The notes: generated by a model not told the origin, from the letters alone. Shown: positions 9,574 through 28,596, counted from the first letter of the stretch. The stretch: DNA of 64,000 bases from Candidatus Omnitrophota bacterium (GCA_016179745.1 JACPCP010000019.1:3190-67189); one strand, 5' to 3'. Numbers and translations are program-made.

Positions 9574-9600
9574 CGGTTTAGAATTTGAGTTTACGGATTC

Positions 9601-10203
9601 TCAGGCAGCCAGATCCTGACGGGAGGCGAACGAAGACCCGGGGGAACTCACGCCCGGCTTTCCTCCCCCGGAGAGCCGGTAGATTTCGTCGAGGTCCCGG
9701 TCGCTCCATTCCGGATCGACCACCTCAGACGGAGAGTCCCGGGGGGTCCGGACTTCATTCGATCGGGCAATCAGATAAAAACGGTCTCTTCCGTTCCCGA
9801 TCCCCAGCTCCGCCCTATAACGGTGATCCGGCACCCCCAAATGGAGATACCAGTTTTTGGTCTCCAGAGAAATCAAGAGGTCATAGGACCGCCTCGCCTC
9901 AAGGTCGTGGACCCGAATCATTGATTTGAGGGAGGGGTCCTCGGAAAATTTCTGCTGAATCCAATTCCAGGTCTCCCCCGAAAAATCCCAGTAGCTGTAA
10001 GCCCAATAGGGGTCCCGGACCATCAGGACGAGTTTTGTTTCGCCGTAAGAAAATGGAAGATCGGTCACGGGGCTTTGGCCTGCGGCCTTGACCGCCGGCC
10101 GAAGCCGAGACCGCAGTTTGGCCCGGGGGCGCCTTCGGGCGGGCGCCTTCTTTCGTGAGGACTTCCTCCGGGAAGATGATTTTCTCCGGCCTTTTCTCCT
10201 CAT
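9601..10203 (-). CDS. DUF4912 domain protein with Arg/Lys-rich N-terminus
   Basis: 200-aa ORF; LVLMVRDPYWAYSYWDFS..W core resembles DUF4912, a family I recall as a frequent GH57 neighbour. Confidence 0.65.
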   Translation of the reverse strand: MRRKGRRKSSSRRKSSRKKAPARRRPRAKLRSRLRPAVKAAGQSPVTDLPFSYGETKLVLMVRDPYWAYSYWDFSGETWNWIQQKFSEDPSLKSMIRVHDLEARRSYDLLISLETKNWYLHLGVPDHRYRAELGIGNGRDRFYLIARSNEVRTPRDSPSEVVDPEWSDRDLDEIYRLSGGGKPGVSSPGSSFASRQDLAA

Positions 10204-10296
10204 GAATTTAAATTCTACGCCCCCTTTCCGTGACTTGCCAATAGAAAAAATCCGCCCGTTGGCCTATAATTGGGCCTTCTTCCCGCCTTCTTATAT

Positions 10297-10372
10297 GGTG
10301 AGCGTAGCTCAACCTGGTTAGAGCACTAGATTGTGGATCTAGGGGTTGCGGGTTCAATTCCCGTCGCTCACC
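10297..10372 (+). tRNA. tRNA-His (GTG)
   Basis: Extra 5' G(-1), acceptor GTGAGCG/CGCTCAC, anticodon stem CTAGA/TCTAG with loop TTGTGGA, T-loop TTCAATT. Confidence 0.9.
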
Positions 10373-10375
10373 CAG

Positions 10376-10616
10376 CTTTTTTCAGCCGAGTGTTTTTTAC
10401 GAGGCTAGAAAAAAGCTGCCCCAGGAGGAGCGCAGCGACGACGCGGGGCGTCCTTCAAATAATCTCCGTTTCTTTTCAGCCGAACGTTTTCCAGTGAGGC
10501 TAGAAAAGAAACGTCCCGAGGAGTCCTAAAGGACGACGAGGGACTTCCTTAATCCCAGCTCGAATTGGGGCTGTCCCAGGAGGCGTCCCGAAGGGACGAC
10601 GACGAGGGACTTCCTT
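10376..10616. repeat. degenerate tandem palindromic repeats (about 95-nt period, 2.5 units) directly 3' of tRNA-His
   Basis: Unit 1 (10376-10456) and unit 2 (10471-10550) share TTTTCAGCCGARYGTTTT..GAGGCTAGAAAA followed by a G(T/C)CCC(A)GGAG..hairpin..GACGACG.GGG.C.TCCTT module. A third copy of the second module lies at 10569-10616. Confidence 0.6.
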
Positions 10617-10665
10617 CGAGGCCGCGGAGGGCCGCAGAAGATTCTGCCTGGGCCTAAAATGGTCC

Positions 10666-11778
10666 TTACCACTGCAGGTCATAATTGACACTGCGTCCTT
10701 TGGCGGGGTTTTGGCGAAGAATCCTTTTTTCAACCAAATCCGAAATTTCACGGAATGCAGTGGCGCGGCTTACCTTGGCCATAGAAACATACTTCCGGGT
10801 TGTCAGTCCTCCCTGAAAGCCGCCTCTCCCGGTGTCCAAGAGACGGTTTACAATCTTTTTTTGCCGCTCATTCATGACTGCCTGAGCATGTTTTTGCCAA
10901 AAATCAGCCTTGGCCAAAACATGTCCGATGATCTTATCTGATCTTTCGATAGCGCGTTGGTAACAACCCAGGAACCAGGTCAGCCAATCGGTCCTGTCAG
11001 CGCTGTTGGTCTTTGAAGATTTTTCGAGAACGCGATAATACTCTTCTCTCTCCTCCATGATTTGAGAGGAAAGGCTGTAATATCGCGTTCCGAGTTTTTC
11101 ATCTTGCGCGAGAGCCGTATCCGTCAAAGCGCGGGCAATGCGCCCATTTCCATCTTCAAGCGGATGGATGGTCACAAAATAAAAGTGGGCCAGCCCAGCC
11201 CGTAAAAGGCCGTCCATTTTCTGTGATTCTGAATTCCACCAGGAAAGGAATAGGCGCATTTCCTTCTCAACCGCTTCCCCCGGCGGGGCTTCAAAATGAA
11301 TTTTCTCGCGGCCTACCGGACCCGAGACGACCCGCATCGGCTCCTTGCCGCGCCACTGCCCAACTCTGATTTTATGGAAACCCGAATGGCCTGTCGGGAA
11401 GAGTGCGGCATGCCAGCCCTTCAGCTTTTCCGCAGTCAAGGGTTCCTGATAATTCTGCGTGGCATTCAAAAGAACTTCGATGAGCCCATCGATAGATCGC
11501 GTTGCGGGTCCCAACCCAGCCACAGGCAGTCCCAAATGCCTTGCAACCGACGAGCGCACCGCTTGCCGATTTAGTCTCTCTCCTTCAATCGCTGAGGTCG
11601 TTACGGCTTCTTCGGTAAGGATATCGGCTTGAGCCTCTTCTCCAAGCTCAAAGCCAAGGCGTTTGACTCGGCCAAGAAGATTCCCCTGCGCAAGCCTCGC
11701 CTGCCCCAGAAGCGGCAATAGGGAGTCGCTTTCCCAGGTCATTTTAGGCCAATTTTTAAGCTGCCAAATATAAGTCAT
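10666..11778 (-). CDS. Fic/DOC-family protein (class II, N-terminal inhibitory helix; DUF4172-type N-terminus)
   Basis: HPLEDGNGRIAR matches the Fic motif HxFx(D/E)GNGRxxR. TSAIEG matches the (S/T)xxxE(G/N) auto-inhibition motif. C-terminal wHTH-like tail. Confidence 0.9.
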   Translation of the reverse strand: MTYIWQLKNWPKMTWESDSLLPLLGQARLAQGNLLGRVKRLGFELGEEAQADILTEEAVTTSAIEGERLNRQAVRSSVARHLGLPVAGLGPATRSIDGLIEVLLNATQNYQEPLTAEKLKGWHAALFPTGHSGFHKIRVGQWRGKEPMRVVSGPVGREKIHFEAPPGEAVEKEMRLFLSWWNSESQKMDGLLRAGLAHFYFVTIHPLEDGNGRIARALTDTALAQDEKLGTRYYSLSSQIMEEREEYYRVLEKSSKTNSADRTDWLTWFLGCYQRAIERSDKIIGHVLAKADFWQKHAQAVMNERQKKIVNRLLDTGRGGFQGGLTTRKYVSMAKVSRATAFREISDLVEKRILRQNPAKGRSVNYDLQW

Positions 11779-11936
11779 AAACGCCTCATAATCGCTTCAT
11801 ATTTAGAAACAATTATGCCCTCTAATTGCTTCCTCTGCAAGGGGAAATAATTCAGGAATTTCGGCGTCTGCCCCATCTTGGGTTGCATTTGATTGTTGGG
11901 CTGAGAAGAAGGAAAAAAATATGGGATTTTTGTTTG

Positions 11937-12107
11937 CTAGGGCTCAGCAGGGACAATCTTCTCTAACTCTGCCACGAGAGGCTGGAGTTCCTTGATGACT
12001 GTGTCCCACACGACGTCTTCATCAACATTCATATAGTCGTGGACGACTTTATGACGCATTCCCACAATGGCCTTCCAGGGGATTTGAGCCCGCATAAACC
12101 AAGTCAT
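11937..12107 (-). pseudogene. truncated HEPN (DUF86-type) toxin remnant, 56 codons
   Basis: My own translation: MTWFMRAQIPWKAIVGMRHKVVHDYMNVDEDVVWDTVIKELQPLVAELEKIVPAEP. It keeps the Rx4H motif (RHKVVH) and the C-terminal helices but lacks roughly the N-terminal half of a normal ~110-aa DUF86 protein. Its ATG overlaps the MNT stop. Confidence 0.55.
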
Positions 12108-12409
12108 CCTTCTGCATACTGGACCTCAGCCTCGGTCAGGACCCGATTACGGATGCGGCGATTCAGGAAGCCCGGAGTCACCAAATCCGGGCGGTGCCCC
12201 TTCACCAGGGGGGAAAGTTCTTCCTCAATCTGATACAAACGGATAAATCCAGGTGTATGCCCTGGTTCAAACTCCACGAGGACATCCACATCGCTCGTGG
12301 GACGGAAATCCTCGCGAAGCACGGATCCAAAGAAAGCCAACCTTCGGATATGATTTCGGCGGCAGAATTCTGCCATTTTTATTCTGTCAATAGAGATTCT
12401 GGTTTTCAT
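12104..12409 (-). CDS. nucleotidyltransferase-domain protein (MNT-type antitoxin of HEPN/MNT pairs)
   Basis: 101-aa ORF; FFGSVLREDFRPTSDVDVLVEF = GS..(D/E)xD minimal nucleotidyltransferase signature. Confidence 0.85.
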   Translation of the reverse strand: MKTRISIDRIKMAEFCRRNHIRRLAFFGSVLREDFRPTSDVDVLVEFEPGHTPGFIRLYQIEEELSPLVKGHRPDLVTPGFLNRRIRNRVLTEAEVQYAEG

Positions 12410-12522
12410 TTTTTACGGCTCCGATTTGACCGAATTCTACCATAGGAATCGGACAAAACAGGCCTTTCTTTAATCTTCCTGCCAGTAACGCCCAAGCGCT
12501 GCCAGCAGGTCTCTCTTCCCGC

Positions 12523-12770
12523 TCACTTCCCCTTCACGAGCCAGTCCATCCACGCCTCCATCTCAAAATAACTCTGGAGGACCCCGAGCTGGATCAGGGT
12601 GTTGCGGTCATAGGAAAATCAAAGGTGCCTGTCCCCATTTCCTTCCATTTCCCTTCATCACGCACCGGAATAAACTTCTGCTTCGGCGTCAGCATCACCT
12701 TCTGCCCAGCTACGTACCGGAGCAATACTTCAAAATCGTGTGTGAGAGCTGTTTGATCAGAATTGTTCAT
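12523..12770 (-). pseudogene. small ORF translationally coupled to the nuclease gene, apparently frameshifted in a T-run
   Basis: ATG at 12770 overlaps the nuclease stop (ATGA). Frame 0 gives 58 aa (MNNSDQTALTHDFEVLLRYVAGQKVML...GTFDFPMTATP*). A protein-like continuation (FSYDRNTLIQLGVLQSYFEMEAWMDWLVKGK*) follows in another frame. Adding one T to the GATTTTCC run would join them into about 82 aa. Confidence 0.3.
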
Positions 12771-13438
12771 TTTGATCCCTGATGCTTTCCAAGCCAGGCG
12801 CAGTATTCGCAGGAACCGTTAGTGGCGGGAAGGGGTCCTCTTAAAAGAGCAGCCGCTTTCCGAAGGGTCGTCCGGGCCCGTTCCGGATCTGTGGAGATTT
12901 TAACGGCTTGAAGTTCAAAGAGAACGTTCCCTTGCTCCCCCACGCTCTTTGGTGAGTAGTAAAGAAGGAAGGCATAACCGGCAATCGGCATCTTGTTTTC
13001 GTGAAGGAGCAGGGTATAGCAATCAAGTTGATTCTGGTAATACTTGACGGCATCCGCTTCTGTCGTGACCGAGCCTTTGGTCTTGTAATCAAAGGGAATA
13101 TATTTGCCGTCTTTGACCAACAGGTCATCAATGGCCCCGCTTAAAATCGAACCATCGCCGTCCCGGTATTCAAGTCCCGTGCGCCAATTGCGCCATTTCT
13201 CAAGCTGCCCCTGATCTGCAAACAAGTTAATGCCGTCAAATTCCGTCTTGTTTAATTCGGCAGGCAGCAAACTTTTTGCCCGAAAGCCGTCAAAATGCGT
13301 CTTGATTACCCGGTCCATACCGCCGGGCAGAGAAGGGAAAATCCCTCGCGGCCGCTTGACGCTCTTGACTTTATCAAACCAGAAACACCTCGGGCATTCG
13401 AGGAAGAGATTAAGTGCAGACGGAGACAATCGAATCAT
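12767..13438 (-). CDS. Cas4-like PD-(D/E)XK nuclease family protein
   Basis: The ORF is open to 13525, but the likely start is MIRLSPSALNLF.. (13438). Has the D..(D/E)xK core (GAIDDLLV...IPFDYKTKG), the QxxxY-like YYQNQLDCY, and N-terminal CPRC plus C-terminal CEYC cysteine pairs. Confidence 0.8.
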   Translation of the reverse strand: MIRLSPSALNLFLECPRCFWFDKVKSVKRPRGIFPSLPGGMDRVIKTHFDGFRAKSLLPAELNKTEFDGINLFADQGQLEKWRNWRTGLEYRDGDGSILSGAIDDLLVKDGKYIPFDYKTKGSVTTEADAVKYYQNQLDCYTLLLHENKMPIAGYAFLLYYSPKSVGEQGNVLFELQAVKISTDPERARTTLRKAAALLRGPLPATNGSCEYCAWLGKHQGSK

Positions 13439-13578
13439 GGCTTTATTTGTGCCGCAACTACCCCTCTTTTTTGCCCCCGCTGCTTTGCCGTCCGAAGCCG
13501 AAAGGCAAACGTGGGCACGGCGCACCTTTTTCGGCGGACAGCGGCCTCAATCTGGGTAGTAGATGGTTTTTTGTCATT

Positions 13579-15441
13579 TTAACTGAAATTTACATCCTGT
13601 AAAAACTCAGAAAGGCCAACTTGGCTGTATCTTACTCCCCCAATGGTTACTGTTCGAACGCTCCGGGTGTAATGTCCACGAGACTGTCGGAAGGGTATAT
13701 TTCTGCTCCAGCTCACAGTCAACCCTTTCTTAGCTCTCGTAACGCCAACAAACAAAAGTCTGCGTTGTTCTTGTTTGTATTCGTGATCCGTCAGATATAC
13801 GGAGCGGTTATCGCCGGGGATGTTGCCGTCGTTGCATCCCATTATAAAAACGTGTTCTGCTTCCAATCCTTTCGAGGCGATAAGCGTCATTACTCTGACA
13901 ACTCTTCCTCGCGTTTCAAGTGTCCGAGAATAATCAAGAAATTTAGAATAAAGAATTTGGATGGTATCTCCTTCTTCTCTGAGTTCCGTAAATATACTTC
14001 TGAGGTCTGCCAATTCCTCGTTCGTGGATGGAATAATTTCATCCATCAATTCGCCCAAGTTTGTACTATCCTTGTGCTGCTCGACAAATTGCCTTATTTC
14101 CTGTAAGTGTGTGCAAAGTGCTCTAAGCTTCCTTTTCCGTCTATCAAAATCATCCCGATCAGCTCTTTGAATGGCTTCCCGTACATTTCCGTATTTCTGT
14201 TTCAGTTGTGCAAACTCAACGGAATAATTGTTCCGATTCTTCAAACCTGCATAGGTTCTTATTCTCAAAATGGAATTTGGCTTCGCAACGACACCAAGTA
14301 GAAGAATCTTTTCCTGCTCAATTTCGGAGTATTCGTTCTTTACGACAAACTTGAATGACAAAGCATCGGGAAGCTGTTGAGTTTTTGTATACTTTACAAA
14401 TTCAGCCCCTAATTTTTTTCGCGGGACAAGCACGATAATATCTTTTGGGTCTGTTTCATTCTGTATTCTTTGGAGAATAGCATTGAAAACAAAGCCGAAT
14501 TCGTCATCCTGTTTCTCCTTTTGCTCCAGCGAAATTTTTCCTTCAATGGCGTCCGGCAATGGCATCAAAAAGTTTGTTCTGCTTGGATTGCCTTGTCGTA
14601 GTAATTGATTCGCAACATTGAGAATTTTCTTTGCGCAACGGCCAGAATACGTTAGAGAGTGTTTTTCAACGCTACCTGATTCAGCAAGTGAAATTATCCC
14701 CTCGGGATAGGCATATTTAAAGCTGTATATGGACTGATCCGGGTCGCCCACAGCCAAAACCAGCTTGGAATTTGCGCCGAGCAAAGCAACGAACTCTTGC
14801 TCAAGCTTGTTTAAGTCTTGGTACTCGTCAACAAAAATATATTGGAGCTTTTCGATAAAGTCTGATCTGAGTTTCTTCGCCAAGTCAACAGCGTGATAAA
14901 CAATTTCTTCCATCATTGCCGCTTCGTGTTCATCAAGCCAATTTATAACAGCCGCCTTAAAACTTTTCCGGGCATCATCCTCATTAAATACTTCGTCGTG
15001 CGGTCTCACCGCCCATCCAGCACTAAATTCATCCAACATCCGTTTGAGTTCGCGTTTGTCGGTGCGGGGAAATAAGATCTTCAGATCAGAGAGGATTATT
15101 TGCTTTTCAAAATCTATCACGATTGACTCAACTCTTTTTCTAATATCGTGGTTGTCTTCTGAAAGTAAAAAGGAAAGACAAATCGAATGCAGAGTTGAAG
15201 CGCGAGGAACCCTGTCAAAGTCTTTTATCCTTTCTCGCAGGTCTTGGGCCGATAAACGTGAAAAGGAAATTATGAAAACTTCTTCCGTGTCAATTCCATG
15301 ATCCGCAATGATCTGCTTGGCTTTGGGCACCAGAATACCCTTTGTTTTTCCGCTTCCAGGTCCTGCGATAACGCAGATTTTTTGAGCGGACGAGGCCAGA
15401 ATTTCTTCAAACTGCGGGGTATTACCATTCATATTGCTCAT
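13579..15441 (-). CDS. UvrD/PcrA-like superfamily 1 DNA helicase
   Basis: 620-aa ORF with Walker A AGPGSGKT, motif II FVDEYQD, motif III VGDPDQSIY, later motifs LIASKGLEAEHVF and LLFVGVTRAKKGL. Markedly AT-rich compared with neighbouring genes. Confidence 0.9.
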   Translation of the reverse strand: MSNMNGNTPQFEEILASSAQKICVIAGPGSGKTKGILVPKAKQIIADHGIDTEEVFIISFSRLSAQDLRERIKDFDRVPRASTLHSICLSFLLSEDNHDIRKRVESIVIDFEKQIILSDLKILFPRTDKRELKRMLDEFSAGWAVRPHDEVFNEDDARKSFKAAVINWLDEHEAAMMEEIVYHAVDLAKKLRSDFIEKLQYIFVDEYQDLNKLEQEFVALLGANSKLVLAVGDPDQSIYSFKYAYPEGIISLAESGSVEKHSLTYSGRCAKKILNVANQLLRQGNPSRTNFLMPLPDAIEGKISLEQKEKQDDEFGFVFNAILQRIQNETDPKDIIVLVPRKKLGAEFVKYTKTQQLPDALSFKFVVKNEYSEIEQEKILLLGVVAKPNSILRIRTYAGLKNRNNYSVEFAQLKQKYGNVREAIQRADRDDFDRRKRKLRALCTHLQEIRQFVEQHKDSTNLGELMDEIIPSTNEELADLRSIFTELREEGDTIQILYSKFLDYSRTLETRGRVVRVMTLIASKGLEAEHVFIMGCNDGNIPGDNRSVYLTDHEYKQEQRRLLFVGVTRAKKGLTVSWSRNIPFRQSRGHYTRSVRTVTIGGVRYSQVGLSEFLQDVNFS

Positions 15442-15577
15442 AATGAGATGCTTGGCTTAATAATCTTAATCCTCTTCCCCGGCGTTAAGCTGAAGGATCG
15501 GAAATATGCCATGCTTTTCCCGCTTATTAGAACGGTCAACGTCGGGCATTCCGAGGCAGTTTTTCGGAGCGTGGATA

Positions 15578-18319
15578 TCAGGTCAGGGAATTTGCTAATT
15601 GAGGCTTGCTCACAACATCAAAAAGGTTCTTCGGATCATCCAGAACCTTAAACTCCCATTTCCCGAAGTTGCCGCTCGTGTTGACGGCGGCAATCCATTC
15701 TTTGGCGGCCTGCCATTTGGCCTTGTCTTGTTCCTTGGTCTGGCCTTTGATTTCGAGAATCAAATGACAATTGTCTTCAAATTTGATGATGTAATCCGGG
15801 TAATAGGTTTTGCTCTGCCCCTGCCAAAGATAAAAGATTTCAAAACCCAAATGGTCGTTCTTGGCCCATGAGACAAGACCGGGAATCCGATCCCGTTCAA
15901 ATTCAAGCCCGGCTTTCTCCCAGCCGCTGTCGATCACGATATGACTGATCTGGCTCTTTCTCACCGGCTGGGTCGGTTTGCTCGTATACCAGGTCATTGC
16001 GCTGGCCGTGCCGCGCTTCGGACGGACGGAATCGAGAACCGGAGTCGGTGCCTCTTTGCTCGAACTCCTGATAAAATATCCAATGTGGTTGATGATCTTT
16101 TGAACGTTAAGCGCGACGACGATTTTCCTTAATTTTTCCGTGCCGGAAAATTTCGGCACTTTGATATCCAGCTTATCCGAAACCAAAAATTCATCGACTA
16201 ACTGCATCAGCTGTCCTATCTGACTGCCGGCATCGCCTTCCCAGTTTTCACTAAATTGTTCCCGGAGACGGGCGGCCGCTTGAAGCTTCAAAGTCTGTAA
16301 TCGCTCGCTATCGGCCAGCCGGTCAAGATTCACTTCGCTGATTTGGTCGAATTTTGGCTTCCCGTCGATCACAGGAGCAACCTCAACAATCGTGGGGGCG
16401 TCCTCGGGTGAAAGTGTCAGTTTCTCAAGCTTACCCCAATCGAGATCAAGAAAATAATTGAGTTTATACTCAATCCGTAAAACATGCGGCCATCCAATCT
16501 CAAAATTTTTTCTTTCCGGAATAGGTGCTATTTTTGTCTTCGGCTTTTCAACGCGCGGGGGCCCCTCTTTTTGTTCCGCCGGCAAAAATGTGAACGGCAC
16601 ACCGAAAACCGTCACGTATTCGGGTTCATACAAACCCGTCTCTTCGTTGACATCATAGGAAATACGACGGAGGCCGCGTCCGATGACCTGTTCGCAAAGG
16701 AGCTGACTTGTAAACGCGCGCAGACCAAGGATGTGCGTAACGGTTCGCGCGTCCCAACCTTCAGATAGCATATTCACACCGATAACACACCGGATATCCT
16801 GCCCCGATCTGCCGACCTTGCCGACCGTGTTAAACTTCTCCCTTTCCTGTTCAACAAGTTCACGGCCCGTTTTCTCAAAGACCATTTTCTCCTCCTCGGC
16901 GGATTCAAGCTTATCAAGCGCGTCCTGATCGATCCTTATCAAACGATCGATATCGCCCAATTCCTCAATCGAAAGGTAACCCTGTGTCAATGAATGTTCG
17001 ACCCGTGCGGCCGTTTCAATGCGGTTGCAGATAATGATCATGACAGGCGGCGTTTCCCTCGGAGGATTTTGCTTTTCCCAGCTTTCTTTTTCTTTCAGCC
17101 AGTCTCCCCCCAAAATGTTCAGGGCATTTCTTACAAGATCAGGCAGGCCTTCGTGGGGCTGAGCCCTCCGGTTTAAATCCTCTTTCACGGAAGGATAAAT
17201 ATGAAAAAGCTTGGACTTAAGATCGGACCCGACTGCCGAATCGTCTCTCACTGCCACTTTGGGGGTTTTAACCAGTCCGCTTTCAATGGCATCGTTAAGC
17301 CCAAAATCGCTCACAACCCAAGTAAATAATTGTTCTTGCTGGTTCATCTTTCCCGTGGGTTTAAAAGGCGTAGCTGTAAGATCATAAGCCCGAAGAACAC
17401 CGCGTGCCTTATGAATCCGGTCGATACCGCTTATCCAGATAGTCGCTTTTTGCTTCTCGGTTTTCTCTTCGTCCTGATCGGGCCGGTGACAGTGATGGGC
17501 TTCATCATTGATCACCAAAATATTGGACGCATTGCCAAACTCGGACAAAACCCTTCGGGAGAAAGCTTCATCGCTTTCGGGGCCCTTCTTTACGACTTTC
17601 GGGCCGTAATTTTCATTGATAGGCGCAAGGGCGTGCCAGTTCTTAACCAGGATTTTCGCCTGTAAAAGCTCCTGCCACATTGCGGAATCGACTAAAACAA
17701 AACTCTGATAAAAATTTTCCCCATTTTCCGGCAGAAGAACCTGGAGCCGGTCGCGGACTGTCAAGCCCGGAGCGATGATAAGGATATTTTTTGAAAAGCG
17801 GGGATCCTTCGGGTTGGCAATTTTGTTGAGCGCCTGCCAAGCAATCAGCATGGCCATCACGACGGTTTTCCCAGTTCCTGTCGCAAGCTTAAGGCACTGC
17901 CGCTCCCATGCGCTTCCGTCGTTTCCGATCTCTATCCCTTGGCGCTCAGCAGCGCTTGCCTCGGTAAGCCAAATGGCCGTTTCGACCGCCTCCATCTGAC
18001 ACCAAAAGAGTCTTAGCACCCGCTGGCTCGGGTCTTGCCAGAATTGTAGAAGCTTTTTTGTCACGCCCGTGACATTCGGATAACCATTTTCTCGCCATTG
18101 TTTGACACGCGGGCGGATTTGATTGACCAATTCAATTTCAATGAATTCACCGGGATCGTCGAAATTATTCGCTGTCCGTGCCGTTGCACGCCAGTAACCC
18201 GACCTCCGGCGGCCCGGTTTTCTCTGAAATTCCTGAGTTTCGCGGATATAAAACCAGTGTTCCTTTGGCTCCCCATATGGGCTGTTGATGATTAATTGGT
18301 CAATGCCTTTTTGTCCCAT
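15578..18319 (-). CDS. res: type III restriction endonuclease, Res subunit (SF2 helicase + C-terminal PD-(D/E)XK)
   Basis: 913-aa ORF; ATGTGKT Walker A, VINDEAHHCH DEAH box, C-terminal PDYIIKF..LILEIKG nuclease motif; begins 4 nt after mod. Confidence 0.9.
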   Translation of the reverse strand: MGQKGIDQLIINSPYGEPKEHWFYIRETQEFQRKPGRRRSGYWRATARTANNFDDPGEFIEIELVNQIRPRVKQWRENGYPNVTGVTKKLLQFWQDPSQRVLRLFWCQMEAVETAIWLTEASAAERQGIEIGNDGSAWERQCLKLATGTGKTVVMAMLIAWQALNKIANPKDPRFSKNILIIAPGLTVRDRLQVLLPENGENFYQSFVLVDSAMWQELLQAKILVKNWHALAPINENYGPKVVKKGPESDEAFSRRVLSEFGNASNILVINDEAHHCHRPDQDEEKTEKQKATIWISGIDRIHKARGVLRAYDLTATPFKPTGKMNQQEQLFTWVVSDFGLNDAIESGLVKTPKVAVRDDSAVGSDLKSKLFHIYPSVKEDLNRRAQPHEGLPDLVRNALNILGGDWLKEKESWEKQNPPRETPPVMIIICNRIETAARVEHSLTQGYLSIEELGDIDRLIRIDQDALDKLESAEEEKMVFEKTGRELVEQEREKFNTVGKVGRSGQDIRCVIGVNMLSEGWDARTVTHILGLRAFTSQLLCEQVIGRGLRRISYDVNEETGLYEPEYVTVFGVPFTFLPAEQKEGPPRVEKPKTKIAPIPERKNFEIGWPHVLRIEYKLNYFLDLDWGKLEKLTLSPEDAPTIVEVAPVIDGKPKFDQISEVNLDRLADSERLQTLKLQAAARLREQFSENWEGDAGSQIGQLMQLVDEFLVSDKLDIKVPKFSGTEKLRKIVVALNVQKIINHIGYFIRSSSKEAPTPVLDSVRPKRGTASAMTWYTSKPTQPVRKSQISHIVIDSGWEKAGLEFERDRIPGLVSWAKNDHLGFEIFYLWQGQSKTYYPDYIIKFEDNCHLILEIKGQTKEQDKAKWQAAKEWIAAVNTSGNFGKWEFKVLDDPKNLFDVVSKPQLANSLT

Positions 18320-18322
18320 GTC

Positions 18323-20842: not shown

Positions 20843-20867
20843 AGAAATCCAATCGTTCTTAACGTGA

Positions 20868-21119
20868 TTAGAGAAAGTAACCTGTTAATGTACCGGTAGA
20901 GGTTGTGCTTGTGCCCACCATGATGGCCCTTTCACCGCTACCCGGATTAGAAGGGCGATGATCTTCCTGGTGGGTATGTTTTGACAAGTGCCCAATGTGA
21001 TCATGGCAATTACCACAGAAGGCGTAATAGACACTCGGCCCTATCTCAGCGCTAAAAAACAATATCGCCACCCCACAGCAGACGCATTTTAGAAATGATG
21101 AAGACTTATAAGAATCCAT
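20868..21119 (-). CDS. hypothetical small Cys/His-rich protein upstream of mod
   Basis: 83-aa ORF ending 25 nt before the mod start, on the same strand. Contains CVCCG..CGNCHDHIGHLSKHTHQEDH. No family recognised, so coding status is uncertain. Confidence 0.3.
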   Translation of the reverse strand: MDSYKSSSFLKCVCCGVAILFFSAEIGPSVYYAFCGNCHDHIGHLSKHTHQEDHRPSNPGSGERAIMVGTSTTSTGTLTGYFL

Positions 21120-21189
21120 GTGCTTTACTCCTTTAAAATTTTCCGCGCGTCATTTCACAAATTACCAGCAGCCTCAATGCTCTGGATAA

Positions 21190-21219
21190 AAAATTGCTTT
21201 GATTTTACCGCAGAATCAG
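21190..21219. repeat. 30-bp exact direct repeat, copy 1 (AAAATTGCTTTGATTTTACCGCAGAATCAG)
   Basis: Identical 30-mer found again at 24529-24558. This copy lies in the intergenic region upstream (minus sense) of the small-ORF/mod/res operon. The minus-strand read contains GGTAAAATC (a -10-like TAAAAT). Confidence 0.7.
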
Positions 21220-21305
21220 CCGCTTTTCAGCTTGAATCTGCCAAATTTTCCAGCGGTACATAAGAACAACGGAACGGCGCCCCGGAGGAGGGGCTGGGCT
21301 CCTAT

Positions 21306-22343
21306 TCAAATCCGCACGGCGAGGGCGGCCTTGAGAAGTTCGTTTGTGAGGAATTTTTCGCCGGAGCCGGAGGAGTAGAAGATATCGGCGAGGTAGCGGT
21401 CGTATTTGTCGGAGCGGGTGCTCGAGATCGTAACGTAGGGGACGCCGGCGAGTTCGGATTCGACAAATTTCTTCGCGCGCTTCCCCGCGGGGGTATCGAG
21501 CTCCGGCGCATCGATCCCGCGCAGCCGGAGGTATTGGCGGGTCGAGCAGCCGAAACCGAGGTCGACCTCGGCAATGACGGTGTCGCCGTCAACCGCCCTT
21601 TCAATGAAGGCATAATAGGTGAAAAGGTCGGCCTCGATTTTTCCCGACGCCCGTTTCAGGCGGTAAGTGTCGCCTTCCACCCATTCGGAAACCACAATCT
21701 CGCCCGCCCGGAGGCCTTCCGCCCCCTTCATCGCGGCGTCCTTCCGGCTGGAAAATCCCAAATCGATCTTGAGGCCGGCCTTTCCGGGATGAATTTTTTC
21801 GGGGCGGGCCAGGCGGTAAGTGTAGGGGACGCCTTTCCGGGGCTGGAGGAGGGCGCGGTCTCCGGGAGGGAAGGTCCGGCCTTTTGATTTCCCGTCTTCT
21901 TCCCGGGCCTCTGTTTTGATTTTTTCAATCAGGCGGCCGGTGGTCCAATCCCCCTCTTCGGCACGGCGGGCCAGCTCAAAACGCTGTTTGTCGTCGGAAA
22001 CCGCAATCAGTTCGCGGTAGTGGGTCCACCTCAAATTTCTCCGCGCGGAGAAATTTGGGAAAGACTCGGCGAACCGCATGGTCCGGTAAAGGACCTTCTC
22101 CCCGATTTCAAGGTCGCGCGAAAGCCGGAGCACCACTTGTCTGCCGTATTCCGCATCTTTTTTGCCGGGGTAAGCGCGCCGGAGGTGGCGGTTGATGAGG
22201 TCCCCGGTGCGCCAGTAGCTGAGCACCTTCTCCCGTTCAATCCGCTGCTGGGCAAGGAGGAGGGTCTTTTTGACGGCTTCCCGGAGGCGGGTGTAGCCGC
22301 CCATCAGGGCGCTTCGAGTTGGGGTCAATGCGGTAGTTGTCAT
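21306..22343 (-). CDS. DUF1016 N-terminal domain fused to a staphylococcal-nuclease (SNase/thermonuclease)-like domain
   Basis: The N-terminal ~150 aa resemble the YhcG/DUF1016 N-domain (..VLSYWRTGDLI...AEYGRQVVLRLSRDL....LRWTHYRELI..DD..R..LARRAEEGDWT...L). The C-terminus has SNase hallmarks (VDGDTVIAEVD...LRLRGIDAPE...GKRAKKFV...DKYDRYLADIF). Confidence 0.75.
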   Translation of the reverse strand: MTTTALTPTRSALMGGYTRLREAVKKTLLLAQQRIEREKVLSYWRTGDLINRHLRRAYPGKKDAEYGRQVVLRLSRDLEIGEKVLYRTMRFAESFPNFSARRNLRWTHYRELIAVSDDKQRFELARRAEEGDWTTGRLIEKIKTEAREEDGKSKGRTFPPGDRALLQPRKGVPYTYRLARPEKIHPGKAGLKIDLGFSSRKDAAMKGAEGLRAGEIVVSEWVEGDTYRLKRASGKIEADLFTYYAFIERAVDGDTVIAEVDLGFGCSTRQYLRLRGIDAPELDTPAGKRAKKFVESELAGVPYVTISSTRSDKYDRYLADIFYSSGSGEKFLTNELLKAALAVRI

Positions 22344-22424
22344 AACGGCCGGAATCAGGCCGTTATTCTACTTCAATCGCAGGCCAAAAACATCCCAAGA
22401 AATAGGAACCCCTATCAGGAGGTT

Positions 22425-22748
22425 TCACCCTTTGAAGGAAACTTCGATCTCCTGGGCAACCTTTCGAGGCAGGAGGGTGGCTTTGATCTTCATGGTGTAA
22501 CCGATGTGGAGCAGAATCTTCTCGAGGGTGGTCACACTGGAAAATTCGCCGCTCTCGACTTTTGAAATATGCTGCTGAGTGACTCCGGCTCTCTTCGCGA
22601 GCTGGTTTTGGCTGAACTTGTGCTTGATCCGGTATTCGATGATCTTCTTTACGATCGCAAGCTTCTGCTCTTCCAGCTCGTAAAGCTCCCTGAAATACGG
22701 GTCCTTCAGCTCTTTTTTGAGATGGTCTTCAACCCGTTCTGTTCCCAT
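22425..22748 (-). CDS. higA: XRE-family HTH antitoxin (HigA-like)
   Basis: 107-aa ORF; HTH FSQNQLAKRAGVTQQHISKVESGE; follows the toxin gene by 13 nt. Confidence 0.75.
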   Translation of the reverse strand: MGTERVEDHLKKELKDPYFRELYELEEQKLAIVKKIIEYRIKHKFSQNQLAKRAGVTQQHISKVESGEFSSVTTLEKILLHIGYTMKIKATLLPRKVAQEIEVSFKG

Positions 22749-22761
22749 TTTATTCTTTTCC

Positions 22762-23109
22762 TTATTTCATTCCTTCGTCGTACAGTTTCCGTCTCTGAAC
22801 CGCCGTTTCAATTTCGGTCTTCGGGGTCTTATTCTTTTTCTTGATAAATCCGTTCGTCAAAACCGCCTTACCCCGATCAAAAAAGTATAAAACCCGAATC
22901 GCCCCTTCTCTTCCTGAAAACCTCAATTCAAAGACCCCTTCCCCGAGACGCTTTGCATGGGGCATTGGAAGCCGGTGTCCGAATTCCTCCAGCAGCCTCC
23001 GGACATAGAAGAATTTCAACCGGGTCCTCATGTCTAAAGAATCGATAAACTCTTCCACTGGGAGCCGGCCGGAGCCGGTCGAAAAATAATGGCAGACGAC
23101 GCCCGTCAT
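22762..23109 (-). CDS. higB: RelE/ParE-superfamily toxin (HigB / phage Gp49-like, DUF891)
   Basis: 115-aa ORF; ..VEEFIDSLD...R.K......LEEFG...P.PHAKRL.EGVFELRF....AIRVLYFF..GKAVLTNGFIKK..KTP.. pattern of Gp49-like toxins; toxin-first order typical of higBA. Confidence 0.75.
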   Translation of the reverse strand: MTGVVCHYFSTGSGRLPVEEFIDSLDMRTRLKFFYVRRLLEEFGHRLPMPHAKRLGEGVFELRFSGREGAIRVLYFFDRGKAVLTNGFIKKKNKTPKTEIETAVQRRKLYDEGMK

Positions 23110-23261
23110 GGAAATCTCTCCTTCTTGGGATGAAATAAAATGAAGCTTGAATTAGGTTCATTTCGATGGACCTCCTGCCAAAGGATACAACCAATCAGTT
23201 GTAATTTCAAGGGGTCTCTTCCAGTCCTAGCTGCGGCAATGATTGCCACAAAACCCTCCTT

Positions 23262-23391
23262 TTTGGTTCGGAGGGCAAGGCGGGATCTTCCGGCTTTTAT
23301 GCACCCGGCACCGATGTGCCGAGTACCGTCACGCAAGGACCAAGGAAGTCCTTGCGTTCCGGCAGGACGATGAAATCGCCCGCAACCCTGA
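23262..23391. repeat. structured intergenic repeat, copy A
   Basis: Shares a 77-bp identical core (23287-23363) with copy B (24335-24411): CTTCCGGCTTTTATGCACCCGGCACCGATGTGCCGAGTACCGTCACGCAAGGACCAAGGAAGTCCTTGCGTTCCGGC. The core contains hairpins GGCAC-cgat-GTGCC and ACGCAAGGAC-caaggaa-GTCCTTGCGT. The flanks are similar but have indels. Confidence 0.8.
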
Positions 23392-23396
23392 AGCGG

Positions 23397-23657
23397 TTAA
23401 AATTTTACCAAAGACCGGCGTTTTCTTCGAGATGAAAGGCTAACGGGAATAAAATTTATCGTCCCCCAAAGGCCGCAACGGGGACAGACGGTGGGAACAG
23501 GGTTCCTTTGCAACTGCTCATATCGATTCTTCATCCATTGAGGTGCGTAGGAAATCATGTCTGCCTGTTCCGACATCGTTCCCACACTGTAAGTGTATCG
23601 AGGCCAGAATTGAAATTCGAGCCCCCGGTATCGGCACTTCCGGCAGCGGTAGAACAT
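23397..23657 (-). CDS. hypothetical zinc-ribbon protein (third gene of the brnTA-like operon)
   Basis: The ORF is open to 23678, but the likely start is MFYRCRKCRY.. at 23657, 4 nt after the brnA stop. Two CxxC pairs (CRKC ... CPRC). No family recognised. Confidence 0.45.
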   Translation of the reverse strand: MFYRCRKCRYRGLEFQFWPRYTYSVGTMSEQADMISYAPQWMKNRYEQLQRNPVPTVCPRCGLWGTINFIPVSLSSRRKRRSLVKF

Positions 23658-23661
23658 CGAT

Positions 23662-23916
23662 TCAGGCCTGGGCGGCACGGTGAAGAAGCTCGGAGATAAA
23701 GGTCTGATATTTCACCCCGAGCTTTCCTGCCTTCTCTTTCAGGTTTTCGAGGTCCCCGCTGTTGACCCGGATATTGAGCACGGCATCTTTTCGGCGGGCT
23801 TGAATCGCCTCGGCGATCTCTTTGAACCGCTCCGGGCCTGAGTCAACATATTCTCCCCTCATGGCCGCTTCTTCGATTTCTCTTTCCATTCTTGTAAGCT
23901 TGATTCGTCTTTTCAT
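23662..23916 (-). CDS. brnA: BrnA-like (COG3514, RHH/CopG-type) antitoxin
   Basis: 84-aa ORF; C-terminal ..LNIRVNSGDLENLKEKAGKLGVKYQTFISELLHRAA resembles the BrnA RHH module; overlaps the brnT stop by 4 nt. Confidence 0.7.
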   Translation of the reverse strand: MKRRIKLTRMEREIEEAAMRGEYVDSGPERFKEIAEAIQARRKDAVLNIRVNSGDLENLKEKAGKLGVKYQTFISELLHRAAQA

Positions 23917-24170
23917 AGTTCACCTCGCTCGTATTTCTTTGTGTAATGCCTGCTGGGGTAAGCCGTCTTTAAGAATATCTCGCCCTCTCTCTCCACGAAC
24001 GGGACAACCCAGATATAACCCCTGCGTTCGAACAACATCAATTCTTGTCCGCTCCTTTTTGGGTGTTCCGTCGTCTTGACCAGCCGTTCTCCGAGGATCT
24101 CTTCAAAGGAAACCCCCCTCACCTTCTTGAGCCTCTGATTCTTGAGGGGGTCCCACCGGAGGGCCCTCAT
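23913..24170 (-). CDS. brnT: BrnT-like (DUF497) toxin
   Basis: 85-aa ORF; N-terminal LRWDPLKNQRLKKVRGVSFEE and C-terminal ..IFLKTAYPSRHYTKKY resemble BrnT/DUF497. Confidence 0.7.
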   Translation of the reverse strand: MRALRWDPLKNQRLKKVRGVSFEEILGERLVKTTEHPKRSGQELMLFERRGYIWVVPFVEREGEIFLKTAYPSRHYTKKYERGEL

Positions 24171-24198
24171 AAGACACCCCGATCATAACACAGCACGA

Positions 24199-24210
24199 TT
24201 GTATATACAA
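24199..24210. promoter_or_regulatory. perfect 12-bp palindrome TTGTATATACAA in a putative brnTA promoter
   Basis: Minus-strand read: TTGTATATACAA-tcgtgctgtgt-TATGAT-11 nt-ATG(brnT). The palindrome overlaps a weak -35, and TATGAT is -10-like. The implied leader is very short. Confidence 0.3.
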
Positions 24211-24307
24211 GTGTGAGCACTTGGAAAGACTTCCGGACGGACATAACAATACCCTCCCGACGTTTTTTGTCGTCCCAGGAGGCCCAAAGGGCCGACGTGG
24301 GATTTCA

Positions 24308-24453
24308 TTTGGTTTTTGGAGGGAGAGGCGGGGTCTTCCGGCTTTTATGCACCCGGCACCGATGTGCCGAGTACCGTCACGCAAGGACCAAGGAAGTCCT
24401 TGCGTTCCGGCGGGACGAAGCGGTTTGGGAAGCCGCAACGCCCGCAACCCTAA
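24308..24453. repeat. structured intergenic repeat, copy B
   Basis: See copy A. The 77-bp identical core lies at 24335-24411. This copy carries extra insertions on both flanks relative to A. Confidence 0.8.
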
Positions 24454-24528
24454 AAAATTATGGTAACCCTTCGCCCTGACTCGTCAGGGCTCAGGGCGTT
24501 GCCTGCCATGAAAATCTTGCAGGCAACG

Positions 24529-24558
24529 AAAATTGCTTTGATTTTACCGCAGAATCAG
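24529..24558. repeat. 30-bp exact direct repeat, copy 2
   Basis: Identical to 21190-21219. Lies between the abiEii stop and repeat copy B, and is preceded by two stem-loops (GCCCTGAC-tc-GTCAGGGC and GTTGCCTGC-catgaaaatctt-GCAGGCAAC). Confidence 0.7.
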
Positions 24559-24641
24559 GCCTTTGACCAATCAGATCTCACCCGTAAATCCTCACGGCTT
24601 CTACCGCTTGGGGGCATCCTTTGGATGTCCCCTTGGCTTTC

Positions 24642-25505
24642 TCATTGAAACCTCTTGTCGGATAGAATCGTGTTAAACCGCTCAATGACCTTCTCCAGAT
24701 CAAATTTTTCTCCGGCGCGAATGACCGGCATGAGATGCAAATCAACCTGGTTTCGCAAAAGCGAAAGCTGATCCGCATTCAACCCGAAATCTTTCCGGTA
24801 ATCTCCGGAATAGCCATCGCCGGAGAGTTTGCTCTTGAAAAGCTTAATGAAGCTGCTTTGATAAAAATCAAACCCGGACTCTGCGATATACCAGAGATCG
24901 TAATAATCCCTGGCCGCCGCGTCCCTGCGCGTAATAGCGGCTTTGAGTTTTTCGGCAATCGCCTCGTTTAACGAAAGAGAAAGAACTTTTCCGGGCGGGA
25001 ACAAATCCTCCCCCGTGAAGGGGTCCTGATAGAAGTGTTTGATGACATGATGGACCGGTTTATCAAGCGGCGGCTGGCGAAGAGATATCTCGAGCTTGAC
25101 GCTTTCCTCTCTTCCCATAATGACGGAGAGGTATTTCACTTTAAAAAGATATTGCGTTGAATTATTGAATCCATCTCCGTGAGGTTTATCGCTCGCCACC
25201 CCAAGAGCTTGCAGGAATTCCGGCATTTTCTCCCGGATGGGCGTAATGGCTTTTGACCGCTCGGAACGTGTGGCCAACTCACCGTGAAAGGTAAAATCCA
25301 AATCCTCGCTCAACCGGTGATAGTTGAGGTGAATTTTATTGAGCAGGGTCCCGCCCTTAAAGACGATTCTTTCGCTGAGTCGTGTTTCGATTTGATTGAG
25401 GATCACGGTAAGGTAATAATCTTTTTCGACGATGGCGGGCCGGAATCTCAGTTTGCCGGCAATTGCGGGAATAATATCTTTGAGCTTTTCTCTATCGATT
25501 GACAA
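24642..25505 (-). CDS. abiEii: AbiEii/AbiGii-family nucleotidyltransferase toxin (DUF1814)
   Basis: 287-aa ORF; FKGGTLLNKIHLNYHRLSEDLDFT motif and later Lys/Asp-rich motifs typical of DUF1814 NTases; overlaps abiEi by 14 nt. Confidence 0.85.
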   Translation of the reverse strand: MSIDREKLKDIIPAIAGKLRFRPAIVEKDYYLTVILNQIETRLSERIVFKGGTLLNKIHLNYHRLSEDLDFTFHGELATRSERSKAITPIREKMPEFLQALGVASDKPHGDGFNNSTQYLFKVKYLSVIMGREESVKLEISLRQPPLDKPVHHVIKHFYQDPFTGEDLFPPGKVLSLSLNEAIAEKLKAAITRRDAAARDYYDLWYIAESGFDFYQSSFIKLFKSKLSGDGYSGDYRKDFGLNADQLSLLRNQVDLHLMPVIRAGEKFDLEKVIERFNTILSDKRFQ

Positions 25506-26274
25506 TGACTTGCCACTCCTTATTTGTCTTCCCCTGCCGTGATGGGTTAAAGGGATTGAGAAGTACGATGGTTTTTGCCGTTCCGATACTTTTTTTCAAA
25601 CCTTCAAGCGACTTATTCTTGCACCCGAGTTCATCGAGTAAAAAACCGGCTCTTTTACGAACTGAAACAACGGGAAACTGTTTGAGATAGCGGATAAATT
25701 TTTCGACATCAATTTCTTTAAGAGCCGTTTGCAAAGCGGATTCGAAGTTGCTGATCGATCCTAAAGGGTTATACGCAAAGTCCACCAAGGTCCGTTCTTT
25801 ATCGCTGATACAAACTTCCTGATCTTCAATCTTGATTTTTTGAACACCGTAATATTTGCTTTGATCAATCTTGACCGCTTCATAACGAATACCCTGGATC
25901 ACGGTTTTGCGGGACTTCGCGGTATTTAAAACGAAAATGGTTCGCGGAATTTGCTCGGTGAATCCCCAGTAGTTGTACATCGTGAAATAACCGATATAGT
26001 AAGGTGCCTCTCCCATCCAAAGACTGGCAAGTATGAACTCATTCGGCATCCACTGCTGATTCGGCGCCTTGATCGGAACAAGCACATACTTGCCCTTCTC
26101 GATTTTAAGAAGACGTCCTTTTTTCGTAAGGAAGAACAAAACCCTGGATGCCTTATTTTTGTCAGGAAAGAGTTTTTGAACAAATCGGGTGGTAATGAGT
26201 TTTTGCTTTTCAAACTCCGCGCGAGAAATTAAATAAAGCTCGTCTTTTGAGAGATTTTTATAGCTGTTTTTCAT
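25492..26274 (-). CDS. abiEi: AbiEi-like type IV TA antitoxin / wHTH regulator
   Basis: 260-aa ORF; N-terminal wHTH-like segment (..ASRVLFFLTKKGRLLKIEKGKYVLVP); sits directly upstream of and overlaps the AbiEii gene. Confidence 0.75.
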   Translation of the reverse strand: MKNSYKNLSKDELYLISRAEFEKQKLITTRFVQKLFPDKNKASRVLFFLTKKGRLLKIEKGKYVLVPIKAPNQQWMPNEFILASLWMGEAPYYIGYFTMYNYWGFTEQIPRTIFVLNTAKSRKTVIQGIRYEAVKIDQSKYYGVQKIKIEDQEVCISDKERTLVDFAYNPLGSISNFESALQTALKEIDVEKFIRYLKQFPVVSVRKRAGFLLDELGCKNKSLEGLKKSIGTAKTIVLLNPFNPSRQGKTNKEWQVIVNR

Positions 26275-26291
26275 AGTTTATCCTGTTTAAT

Positions 26292-26314
26292 GAAGTTGCG
26301 ATATTCGTAACTTC
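26292..26314. promoter_or_regulatory. 23-bp imperfect palindrome upstream of abiEi (candidate operator)
   Basis: GAAGTTGCGA-tat-TCGTAACTTC has 10-nt arms with one mismatch. It lies 18-40 nt upstream of the abiEi start. Confidence 0.4.
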
Positions 26315-26354
26315 GTTAAACGTGATGCAATTATCACCAAATCGCCCTGATTTG

Positions 26355-28178: not shown

Positions 28179-28205
28179 GGCGGGGTGTTGCGTCCTGAAA
28201 AAATC

Positions 28206-28279
28206 TGCGCCCGGCGCGAGTCGAACGCGCGACCTACAGCTTAGAAGGCTGTTGCTCTATCCATCTGAGCTACGGGCGC
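28206..28279 (-). tRNA. tRNA-Arg (TCT)
   Basis: Reverse complement GCGCCCGTAGCTCAGATGGATAGAGC..ACAGC-CTTCTAA-GCTGT..TTCGACT..CGGGCGCA folds as a cloverleaf. Confidence 0.9.
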
Positions 28280-28353
28280 AATAACCTCGATATTTCTAAC
28301 CTATCGCAATACAGTCACGGCCGATGATTTCGGCTGATCAACTTTACATCGCC

Positions 28354-28437
28354 GTCCCACCGAAGGTGGGGCGGGCGCAGAAACTCATCTCGGCACTCCC
28401 CTTTACCTAGCAGTCCCACCGAAGGTGGGGCGGGCGC
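28354..28437. repeat. two copies of a 25-bp GC-rich hairpin element (GTCCCACCGAAGGTGGGGCGGGCGC)
   Basis: Exact copies at 28354-28378 and 28413-28437. Each contains CCCACC-gaag-GGTGGG. They sit between tatA and tRNA-Arg. Confidence 0.7.
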
Positions 28438-28440
28438 GGT

Positions 28441-28596
28441 TTACTTCTTTTCGTCGTCTGAGCCCTTGATGCTTTTTTTGAATTCCCGAATCCCCTCTCC
28501 CAGGGCCCGGCCGATTTCGGGAAGGCGCTTTGCGCCGAAAAGGAGCAGAACGACAATCAAAATGACCAGGATTTCAAGCGGTCCCGGCATATTCAT
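28441..28596 (-). CDS. tatA: twin-arginine translocase subunit TatA/E
   Basis: 51-aa product MNMPGPLEILVILIVVLLLFGAKRLPEIGRALGEGIREFKKSIKG.. with a GGAGGG RBS upstream. The longer 115-aa ORF form runs through tRNA-Pro and is rejected. Confidence 0.85.
   Translation of the reverse strand: MNMPGPLEILVILIVVLLLFGAKRLPEIGRALGEGIREFKKSIKGSDDEKK

Follow-up and report, generated by a model that had tools for sequence, protein, structure and literature searches.

A defence and toxin-antitoxin region beside tRNA-His in a Candidatus Omnitrophota bacterium, probably a composite chromosomal hotspot

Introduction

How does a cluster of defence and toxin-antitoxin (TA) genes of about 16 kb come to lie beside a tRNA gene with no integrase of its own? 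The question is raised by a 64,000-nucleotide stretch from a Candidatus Omnitrophota bacterium (GCA_016179745.1, JACPCP010000019.1:3190-67189), here called the window, in which positions 10374-26354 separate tRNA-His from malQ. An earlier reading made from the DNA alone (the sequence-only reading) had described this region as an island of immunity and addiction modules, all on the minus strand, that splits an alpha-glucan gene set. Profile searches (Pfam, PADLOC, NCBIfam) recovered the cluster with its modules where that reading had placed them, and every gene in the interval from tRNA-His to malQ is on the minus strand. Comparison with relatives, however, points to another origin: in this Omnitrophota lineage the region is probably a chromosomal hotspot of defence and TA genes, composite in its make-up, and no single integrated element. 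Omnitrophota are uncultured, often ultra-small bacteria, and we know of little work on their defence against phages.

Results

Conserved anchors and exchanged cargo

Four features define the frame of the region; related contigs and loci are designated below by L numbers.

10298-10373, plus strand: tRNA-His(GTG) (ARAGORN; Rfam, 66.9 bits), left border and synteny breakpoint
12660-12766, minus strand: stump, the initial ~100 nt of the gene found downstream of the nuclease gene in relatives (nucleotide alignment)
12767-13438, minus strand: Cas4-like PD-(D/E)XK nuclease, ~225 aa (Pfam PDDEXK_1)
26355-28280, minus strand: malQ (GH77; 26355-28178; Pfam 1.3e-120), then tRNA-Arg(TCT), conserved right flank

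The comparison is based on four related lineages, all of them metagenome contigs (the window, L098-L100, L102 and L095). The nuclease gene is retained in L095, L098-L101 and L102, with 87-90% identity to the copies in these contigs at the amino acid level and 84-87% at the nucleotide level, and malQ with tRNA-Arg is retained in L095, the closest MalQ relative (80% amino acid identity; 84% nucleotide identity including tRNA-Arg). Homologues of the nuclease number 1390 at E ≤ 1e-20 and are 63-90% identical, and those that carry an organism name belong to Omnitrophica/Omnitrophota; the named homologues of the GH57 protein left of tRNA-His and of MalQ are likewise annotated as Candidatus Omnitrophica/Omnitrophota, and NCBI lists the MalQ of the window under this name too. 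In two distant Omnitrophota (L103 and L104) the nuclease gene stands among glycosyltransferase, GpsA, Ysc84 and GHL10 genes, with no defence neighbours. Judged by this conservation, the gene is a phylum-conserved core anchor, probably inherited vertically, and no island cargo. The sequence-only reading had counted it in a nuclease/helicase cassette; with its phylum-wide conservation and its housekeeping context in L103 and L104, it is no part of a defence cassette, and pairs of PD-(D/E)XK and UvrD genes should not automatically be taken as such cassettes. The protein has CxxC motifs at both ends and is conserved more strongly than GH57 or MalQ. Its sole match in the PDB is a marginal one to Cas4 (4r5q, E = 0.02).

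Directly after the stop codon of the nuclease gene, the window is 86-89% identical at the nucleotide level to L095, L098, L099, L101 and L102, and this similarity ends at ~12660. Since it stops there, the genes on the tRNA-His side (Fic, a HepT fragment and MNT, described below) border on a core gene that is cut short. The span thus encloses, at 12660-13438, a core gene together with its neighbour's stump, and this contradicts the single-island model that was implicit in the sequence-only reading.

The cargo between the anchors is listed here from the nuclease gene towards malQ.

13579-15441, minus strand: UvrD-family helicase, GajB-like, 42% GC (Pfam; PADLOC GajB 3.1e-55)
15578-18319, minus strand: type III-like Res subunit, BPTD_3080 family (NF046055, 999.8 bits against a cut-off of 800, ~1e-300; Pfam ResIII)
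18323-20842, minus strand: type III Mod methyltransferase (PADLOC MTase_III 7.5e-158)
21306-22343, minus strand: DUF1016_N + SNase fusion protein (Pfam; PADLOC PDC-S02), 60.5% GC, host-like
22762-23109 and 22425-22748, minus strand: HigB-like (Gp49) and HigA-like (HTH_3) proteins (Pfam 1.4e-24 and 1.6e-11)
23397-23678, minus strand: Zn-ribbon open reading frame (ORF) with two CxxC motifs, 93 aa, overlapping the stop of the BrnA-like gene by 17 nt
23913-24170 and 23662-23916, minus strand: BrnT-like and BrnA/CopG-like proteins (sub-threshold Pfam)
25492-26274 and 24642-25505, minus strand: AbiEi and AbiEii (PADLOC 2.6e-52 and 4e-38; Pfam above cut-off)

Whereas the anchors are shared, the four lineages carry four different defence sets, and the gene kinds that they have in common are 26-38% identical. 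Upstream of the nuclease gene the window has Mod, Res and UvrD. The groundwater contigs L098, L099 and L100 have Mod, a 248-aa ORF, Res, ORFs of 132 and 222 aa, UvrD and then the nuclease gene, so that the order of Mod, Res and UvrD in L098-L100 is as in the window but the identity is only 26-29% (27% for UvrD of L098). At the same place L102 has a type I restriction-modification (R-M) system with a ThsB_TIR gene, and L095 has AAA_14/DUF4143 (PDC-S01), DUF4268 (PDC-S11) and a 285-aa ORF. L095 shows the whole interval on a single contig, in the order tRNA-Arg, malQ, AbiEi, AbiEii, a 166-aa ORF, DUF1016N-SNase, DUF4143, DUF4268, the 285-aa ORF and the nuclease gene. Its AbiE genes occupy the same position as in the window, AbiEi/Eii and DUF1016N-SNase are 34-38% identical to those of the window (34% for DUF1016N-SNase), and the GC content of its hotspot dips to 43-50%. 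Because L095 carries the same kinds of genes in diverged form, the interval from malQ to the nuclease gene is old and has been continuously re-stocked, and is not a recent insertion. The sequence-only reading had named, as an outcome that would speak against an island, relatives with the same genes in the same place and with uniform composition; L095 goes halfway: its genes are of the same kinds but only 34-38% identical, and its GC is low as well.

Recombination scars mark the junctions, among them the neighbour stump and, as described below, the HepT fragment and duplicated non-coding pieces. Over its last 35 nt AbiEii of the window has 91% identity to that of L095, as against 38% between the proteins. 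The window joins sequences that in L095 lie 2.9 kb apart, at positions 3833 and 6729, and both L095 sites carry the microhomology AAAAAG. In L098, DUF4143 directly precedes a non-coding element, element E, that is described below, which favours a deletion in the lineage of the window. Of an AbiEi gene of the L095 type, L098 has in addition kept the promoter and, with the start codon, the first 20 nt (L098 871-931 against L095 2110-2170), a scar that would reflect loss of the whole block from AbiE to DUF4143.

Composition and gene content

The region has a GC content of 48.8% as against 56.9% in its flanks, where the GC content at third codon positions is 64-72%. By gene the values run from 41.5% for AbiEi and 42% for UvrD up to 60.5% for DUF1016N-SNase. 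The patchiness that the sequence-only reading had noticed was thus borne out (41-60% by gene), as were its spot values for mod and the helicase; the foreign composition that it suggested holds for the region as a whole but not for the DUF1016N-SNase gene, which is host-like. The centre of mod (19523-20243) has 35-40% GC and its ends 45-57%. Pfam N6_N4_Mtase, a profile of 221 positions, covers residues 152-479 of Mod, and the long insert that this implies coincides with the low-GC centre and is presumably the exchangeable target-recognition domain of the methylase.

Family models supported the type III R-M, DUF1016N-SNase, HigBA-like and AbiEi/Eii modules, each in its predicted place. The Res and Mod genes are 3 nt apart, so that the pairing of a Mod with an adjacent Res that defines a type III R-M system is present, and AbiEi and AbiEii overlap by 14 nt, as genes of an AbiE system do. 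The UvrD protein matches GajB models; a GajA-like protein that would complete a Gabija system is absent from the region by Pfam and PADLOC. The DUF1016N-SNase protein was also considered as a novel fusion and this was rejected, as its family has at least 437 clusters at E ≤ 1e-30; at E ≤ 1e-3 there are 5791 cluster representatives, and nearly all of the best 150 representatives listed are full length. The BrnTA-like and Zn-ribbon genes are in place, but the BrnT-like and BrnA-like proteins score below the Pfam gathering thresholds (BrnT_toxin, 20.3 bits against 34.5, 7e-4; CopG_antitoxin, 25.4 against 28, 2.4e-5). The BrnT-like protein has no match in the PDB and the Zn-ribbon ORF none in Pfam, NCBIfam or PADLOC; the latter may belong to the BrnTA-like cassette as its third component.

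The tRNA-His-proximal patch

Between tRNA-His and the stump lies a short patch with features of its own.

10374-10665: hairpin-rich spacer of ~2.5 tandem units of ~95 nt, directly 3' of tRNA-His (repeat search)
10666-11778, minus strand: DUF4172-Fic protein, SoFic-like (Pfam; PADLOC SoFic 9.6e-47)
11937-12107, minus strand: C-terminal fragment of HepT, a HEPN toxin, 56 aa (Pfam HepT-like 2.5e-13)
12104-12409, minus strand: MNT nucleotidyltransferase, the antitoxin partner of HepT (Pfam NTP_transf_2 5.8e-12; PADLOC PDC-S09 5e-23)

The Fic module and the MNT gene with a HEPN remnant had both been predicted and were recovered, the former as a DUF4172-Fic protein that matches SoFic. The HepT fragment matches only positions 77-120 of the 120 in the profile, and a full-length HEPN toxin is absent from the MNT-HepT pair; the fragment was also called in an independently assembled contig (L081). 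Each unit of the spacer holds a long A/T hairpin followed by a nested GC hairpin, and the spacer folds with z = -6.1 on the plus strand and -4.2 on the minus strand. The hairpin motif is confined to 10420-10616, with a related motif at 24274-24302 (regular expression search), and no homologue of the spacer was present in any fetched relative.

The Fic gene is 88.6% identical at the amino acid level and 82% at the nucleotide level to the Fic gene of L094, as compared with 72% for GH57 of the same pair, and in L094 it sits in a 2.2-kb insert (7132-9372) that splits tRNA-Val(CAC) after EF-P. DUF4172-Fic is the sole gene of that insert, the 5' half of tRNA-Val is duplicated and TTGGTTAGCAAATTGGTTAGCAG repeats flank the insert. 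It resembles a tRNA-targeting cassette without an integrase. The end of a Fic gene in L092 lies 2 nt from tRNA-His, the contig of L105 breaks off within the anticodon region of tRNA-His and the L094 contig ends 97 nt past the gene. From these junctions, tRNA-His is a real integration point, and the patch of Fic, truncated HepT and MNT looks like decayed cargo of small tRNA-targeting elements.

The alpha-glucan genes and the single-island model

If one island had entered the 3' end of tRNA-His, it would have separated DUF4912 from malQ, and decay would later have removed its integrase and attR. Left of tRNA-His lie DUF4912, the GH57 branching-enzyme-like gene, a D-Ala-D-Ala carboxypeptidase gene and a glucoamylase-like gene, and the sequence-only reading had seen malQ on the other side as the severed remainder of the set. 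A scan of GTDB with GH57 returned 80 loci, at identities of ≤ 64%, of which 47 are informative, having 5 kb or more on the side of DUF4912. A MalQ homologue is found on that side in one of the 47, and tRNA-His nearby in none. A scan of JGI metagenomes with MalQ gave matches of ≤ 58% and no synteny. In L092, whose GH57 is 71% identical, synteny with the window is perfect over LOG, tmRNA, SmpB, EF-P, glucoamylase, penicillin-binding protein, GH57, DUF4912 and tRNA-His; past tRNA-His there follow a different Fic gene, DoxX, RF-1, VTT, Dus and PilMNO, none of which has a match in the window. In L096 and L097, malQ adjoins a different GH57 gene (840 aa). As malQ stands apart from GH57/DUF4912 in 46 of the 47 GTDB loci and in L092, no glucan set was split, and a site with DUF4912, tRNA-His and malQ contiguous was found in none of the relatives searched. 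In the relatives examined we see no evidence, from gene order, that GH57/DUF4912 and malQ were once neighbours, which corrects the idea of an interrupted glucan operon.

A classical tRNA-integrated island has a tyrosine integrase and a direct repeat of the tRNA 3' end. Pfam found no integrase or transposase in the assigned genes or the 18 alternative ORFs of the region, every ORF of at least 94 aa being an assigned gene or without a Pfam match. Two probes of the tRNA-His 3' terminus (31 and 17 nt), for which up to 3 mismatches were allowed, matched nothing in the 64 kb but the tRNA itself. The sequence-only reading was therefore right that the region lacks an integrase or transposase and that its right border lacks a copy of the tRNA-His 3' end, and its picture of a compositionally foreign defence/TA region beside tRNA-His, with neither integrase nor att repeat, is supported. 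Megablast of the region against plasmid and phage collections gave no match. Among the marks of a tRNA-integrated island, then, an integrase at one end, a tRNA 3' repeat at the far border and an empty site in a relative were all missing. The contact with tRNA-His, the low GC of the whole span and the fact that relatives also have a breakpoint at tRNA-His (an abutting Fic gene in L092, a contig break within the tRNA in L105) do fit a single island. Such an island is nevertheless very unlikely, given the core gene and neighbour stump inside the span, the malQ-side block that recurs in L095 with different alleles, the lack of any relative with malQ after tRNA-His or of a tRNA repeat, and a GC content that varies from 41% to 60% by gene.

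Element E and the internal repeats

The sequence-only reading had suggested that internal repeats may be relevant to how the region was built. The repeats exist, and with element E they form the following set.

24439-24640, minus strand: element E, non-coding, ~200 nt, head of the variable block (alignment to L098/L100)
21190-21219, minus strand: P30, 30 nt identical to part of E, located 348 nt upstream of mod
23267-23395, minus strand: ~130-nt repeat, copy 1 (E tail, AGGGTTGCGGGCG, plus R104) (repeat search, nhmmer)
24315-24454, minus strand: ~130-nt repeat, copy 2 (repeat search, nhmmer)

Against positions 1020-1267 of L098/L100, E aligns over 48 nt at 100%, 105 nt at 89% and 35 nt at 97%; in L098 it directly precedes Mod, and its first 42 nt match L095 6729-6770. 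E is better conserved across lineages than the genes around it. It is predicted to hold a promoter-like site at 24569-24541 (minus strand; TGGTCA-N17-TAAAAT) as well as a strong terminator-like hairpin at 24610-24632 (plus strand). A 62-aa ORF on its plus strand was considered as coding and ruled out: it has no Pfam match, and there are 1-nt indels relative to L098, so that E is non-coding. E has no match in Rfam, and its 47-nt core is absent from IMG/VR. Alifold on two E sequences gave 0 compensatory pairs on either strand, and we therefore make no RNA claim for E.

The second copy of P30 lies inside E at 24529-24558, and P30 includes the TAAAAT hexamer, which resembles a -10 element; a promoter-like site is predicted at 21230-21202, at the P30 copy upstream of mod. 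R104 is a match of 104 nt at 95%, which nhmmer extends to 23395-23267 against 24454-24316, and the two copies of the resulting ~130-nt repeat bracket the BrnT-BrnA-Zn-ribbon cassette. Apart from the ~130-nt repeat and P30, the 64 kb hold no sizeable repeats.

E, P30 and the ~130-nt repeat could then be sites of a recombinase encoded elsewhere, with integron-like capture but no local integrase. The genes are co-oriented, direct repeats bracket one cassette, P30 recurs exactly at two cassette borders, and E, better conserved than its neighbours, heads the array in three lineages, all of which would suit such a system. A crude regular expression for attC-like sites (RYYYAAC-N40-130-GTTRRRY) found none in the intergenic regions of the region or in the window, and an integron was rejected on this ground. 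With no attC-like R''...R' pairs, repeats at only two cassette borders, cargo units as large as the 5.4-kb R-M system, an E that resembles an ordinary terminator plus promoter and no recombinase in the 64 kb (a partial survey), a distant recombinase is unlikely as well. More speculatively, and we would give it only a slim chance, E with P30 and the ~130-nt repeat might be a dedicated landing pad, in the sense of a recombination or regulatory module that steers the capture and expression of defence cassettes without an integrase, at a site upstream of the Cas4-like nuclease gene that is shared across Omnitrophota; the nuclease might itself join in the turnover of the cassettes.

Assembly support

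A further explanation is that the region is an artefact, a chimeric contig of a metagenome-assembled genome that joins the tRNA-His and malQ regions through repeats. The source is indeed such a genome, repeats of 104 and 30 nt lie inside the region, and the Logan contigs break at 13831 and 24382. These same contigs, however, independently cover the borders: L081 spans window positions 9120-13831 at 100% identity, with GH57, DUF4912, tRNA-His, Fic, MNT, the nuclease gene and the 3' end of UvrD, and L082 runs at 100% identity from mreC through malQ, AbiE and E to its end at 24382, so that both borders are reproduced. Furthermore, L098 shows the order Mod, Res, UvrD and nuclease naturally, and L095 has malQ and the nuclease gene on one contig. 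We consider an artefact extremely unlikely.

Other features of the window

The largest intergenic gap between tRNA-His and malQ is 471 nt. Rfam at E ≤ 1 over 9500-29000 returned three tRNAs alone, besides three sub-threshold chance matches. Between tRNA-Arg and tatA there are two 37-nt direct repeats, 92% identical (28342-28378 and 28401-28437), both of which hold a GC-rich hairpin (CCCACCGAAGGTGGG). The tmRNA of the window (1375-1758) encodes a tag of 20 residues, ADKLSWANRSFGPVALPLAV, which is identical in L094 (10019-10397) and differs by one residue, M for V, in L092 (16841-17220). A GC dip at 60-61.5 kb coincides with a VTT-domain gene and an SNF-family symporter gene (60979-61608 and 59275-60879), and no mobility genes were seen there.

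Discussion

The anatomy of the region, its pattern of conservation and its scars are direct observations, and conserved flanks, differing defence content and a GC content below that of the genome are among the marks of a core defence hotspot. We regard the region as composed of three layers. The patch next to tRNA-His (10374-12660; Fic, truncated HepT and MNT) would be what is left, after decay, of the cargo of small tRNA-targeting elements. The second layer would be the vertically inherited nuclease gene (12767-13438) with the stump of its downstream neighbour, and the third the variable block from 13579 to 26274, between this anchor and malQ, with a different defence set in each related lineage. 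Incoming DNA from related cells would be exchanged by homologous recombination in malQ, the 3' end of AbiEii, element E and the nuclease gene, combined with microhomology-mediated deletions and local duplications, and a later rearrangement would have put the tRNA-His patch beside the nuclease anchor. Since recombination would take place in conserved anchors, the region would need no integrase or att sites of its own.

Several points weigh against this account. The route and direction of recombination are what we infer from aligned sequences, and whether an event was a deletion or an insertion is judged in each case by parsimony among 2-3 sequences. Only four related lineages were retrievable, as metagenome contigs throughout. 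The nuclease gene has a GC content of 50.6% and a tetranucleotide profile slightly atypical for the genome, so that the anchor may conceivably have been transferred together with its surroundings. No relative contig spans the distance from tRNA-His to malQ, which weakens any statement on the ancestral order, and independent assemblies cover the region only up to 13831 and from 24382 onwards.

Comparable regions are known from well-studied bacteria. At the core defence hotspots cDHS1 and cDHS2 of Pseudomonas aeruginosa, no mobile gene is detectable at 29% and 47% of the sites, respectively, a tRNA or tmRNA gene lies in the flanks, the GC content of cDHS1 is below that of the genome and type III R-M systems are among the common cargo (Johnson et al. 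2023, PMC10250203). The Omnitrophota region is like them in its variable defence block between core genes, the tRNA in its flank, its low GC, its type III R-M system and its absence of mobility genes. It is unlike them in the phylum in which it occurs, in being known from four metagenomic lineages rather than thousands of isolates, in its Cas4-like nuclease anchor, in the non-coding element that heads the block and in the TA modules that make up much of the cargo. In Escherichia coli, 18 of 41 hotspots are at tRNA loci, AbiEii occurs in certain hotspots only and 68% of the cases at hotspot #37 have no detectable mobile genetic element (Hochhauser et al. 2023, PMC10121019). Hotspot #37 is likewise dedicated to defence, but many E. 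coli cases keep integrase or recombinase genes, of which there are none here. With classical tRNA islands the region shares its contact with a tRNA gene, its atypical composition and its accessory cargo, and it differs in having no integrase, no att repeat and a core gene inside. Integron arrays and clusters of attC sites lacking an integrase (CALINs) resemble it in their co-oriented genes, many TA cassettes and short repeats at some cassette borders; here, however, there are no attC-like sites by the crude test and no intI, and the cassettes are several kb long.

The composite hotspot that we propose is thus of a kind already known, and the core defence hotspot architecture of Pseudomonas and E. 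coli would be present in Omnitrophota as well. The nuclease gene and element E could serve as baits for more defence systems in Omnitrophota metagenomes.

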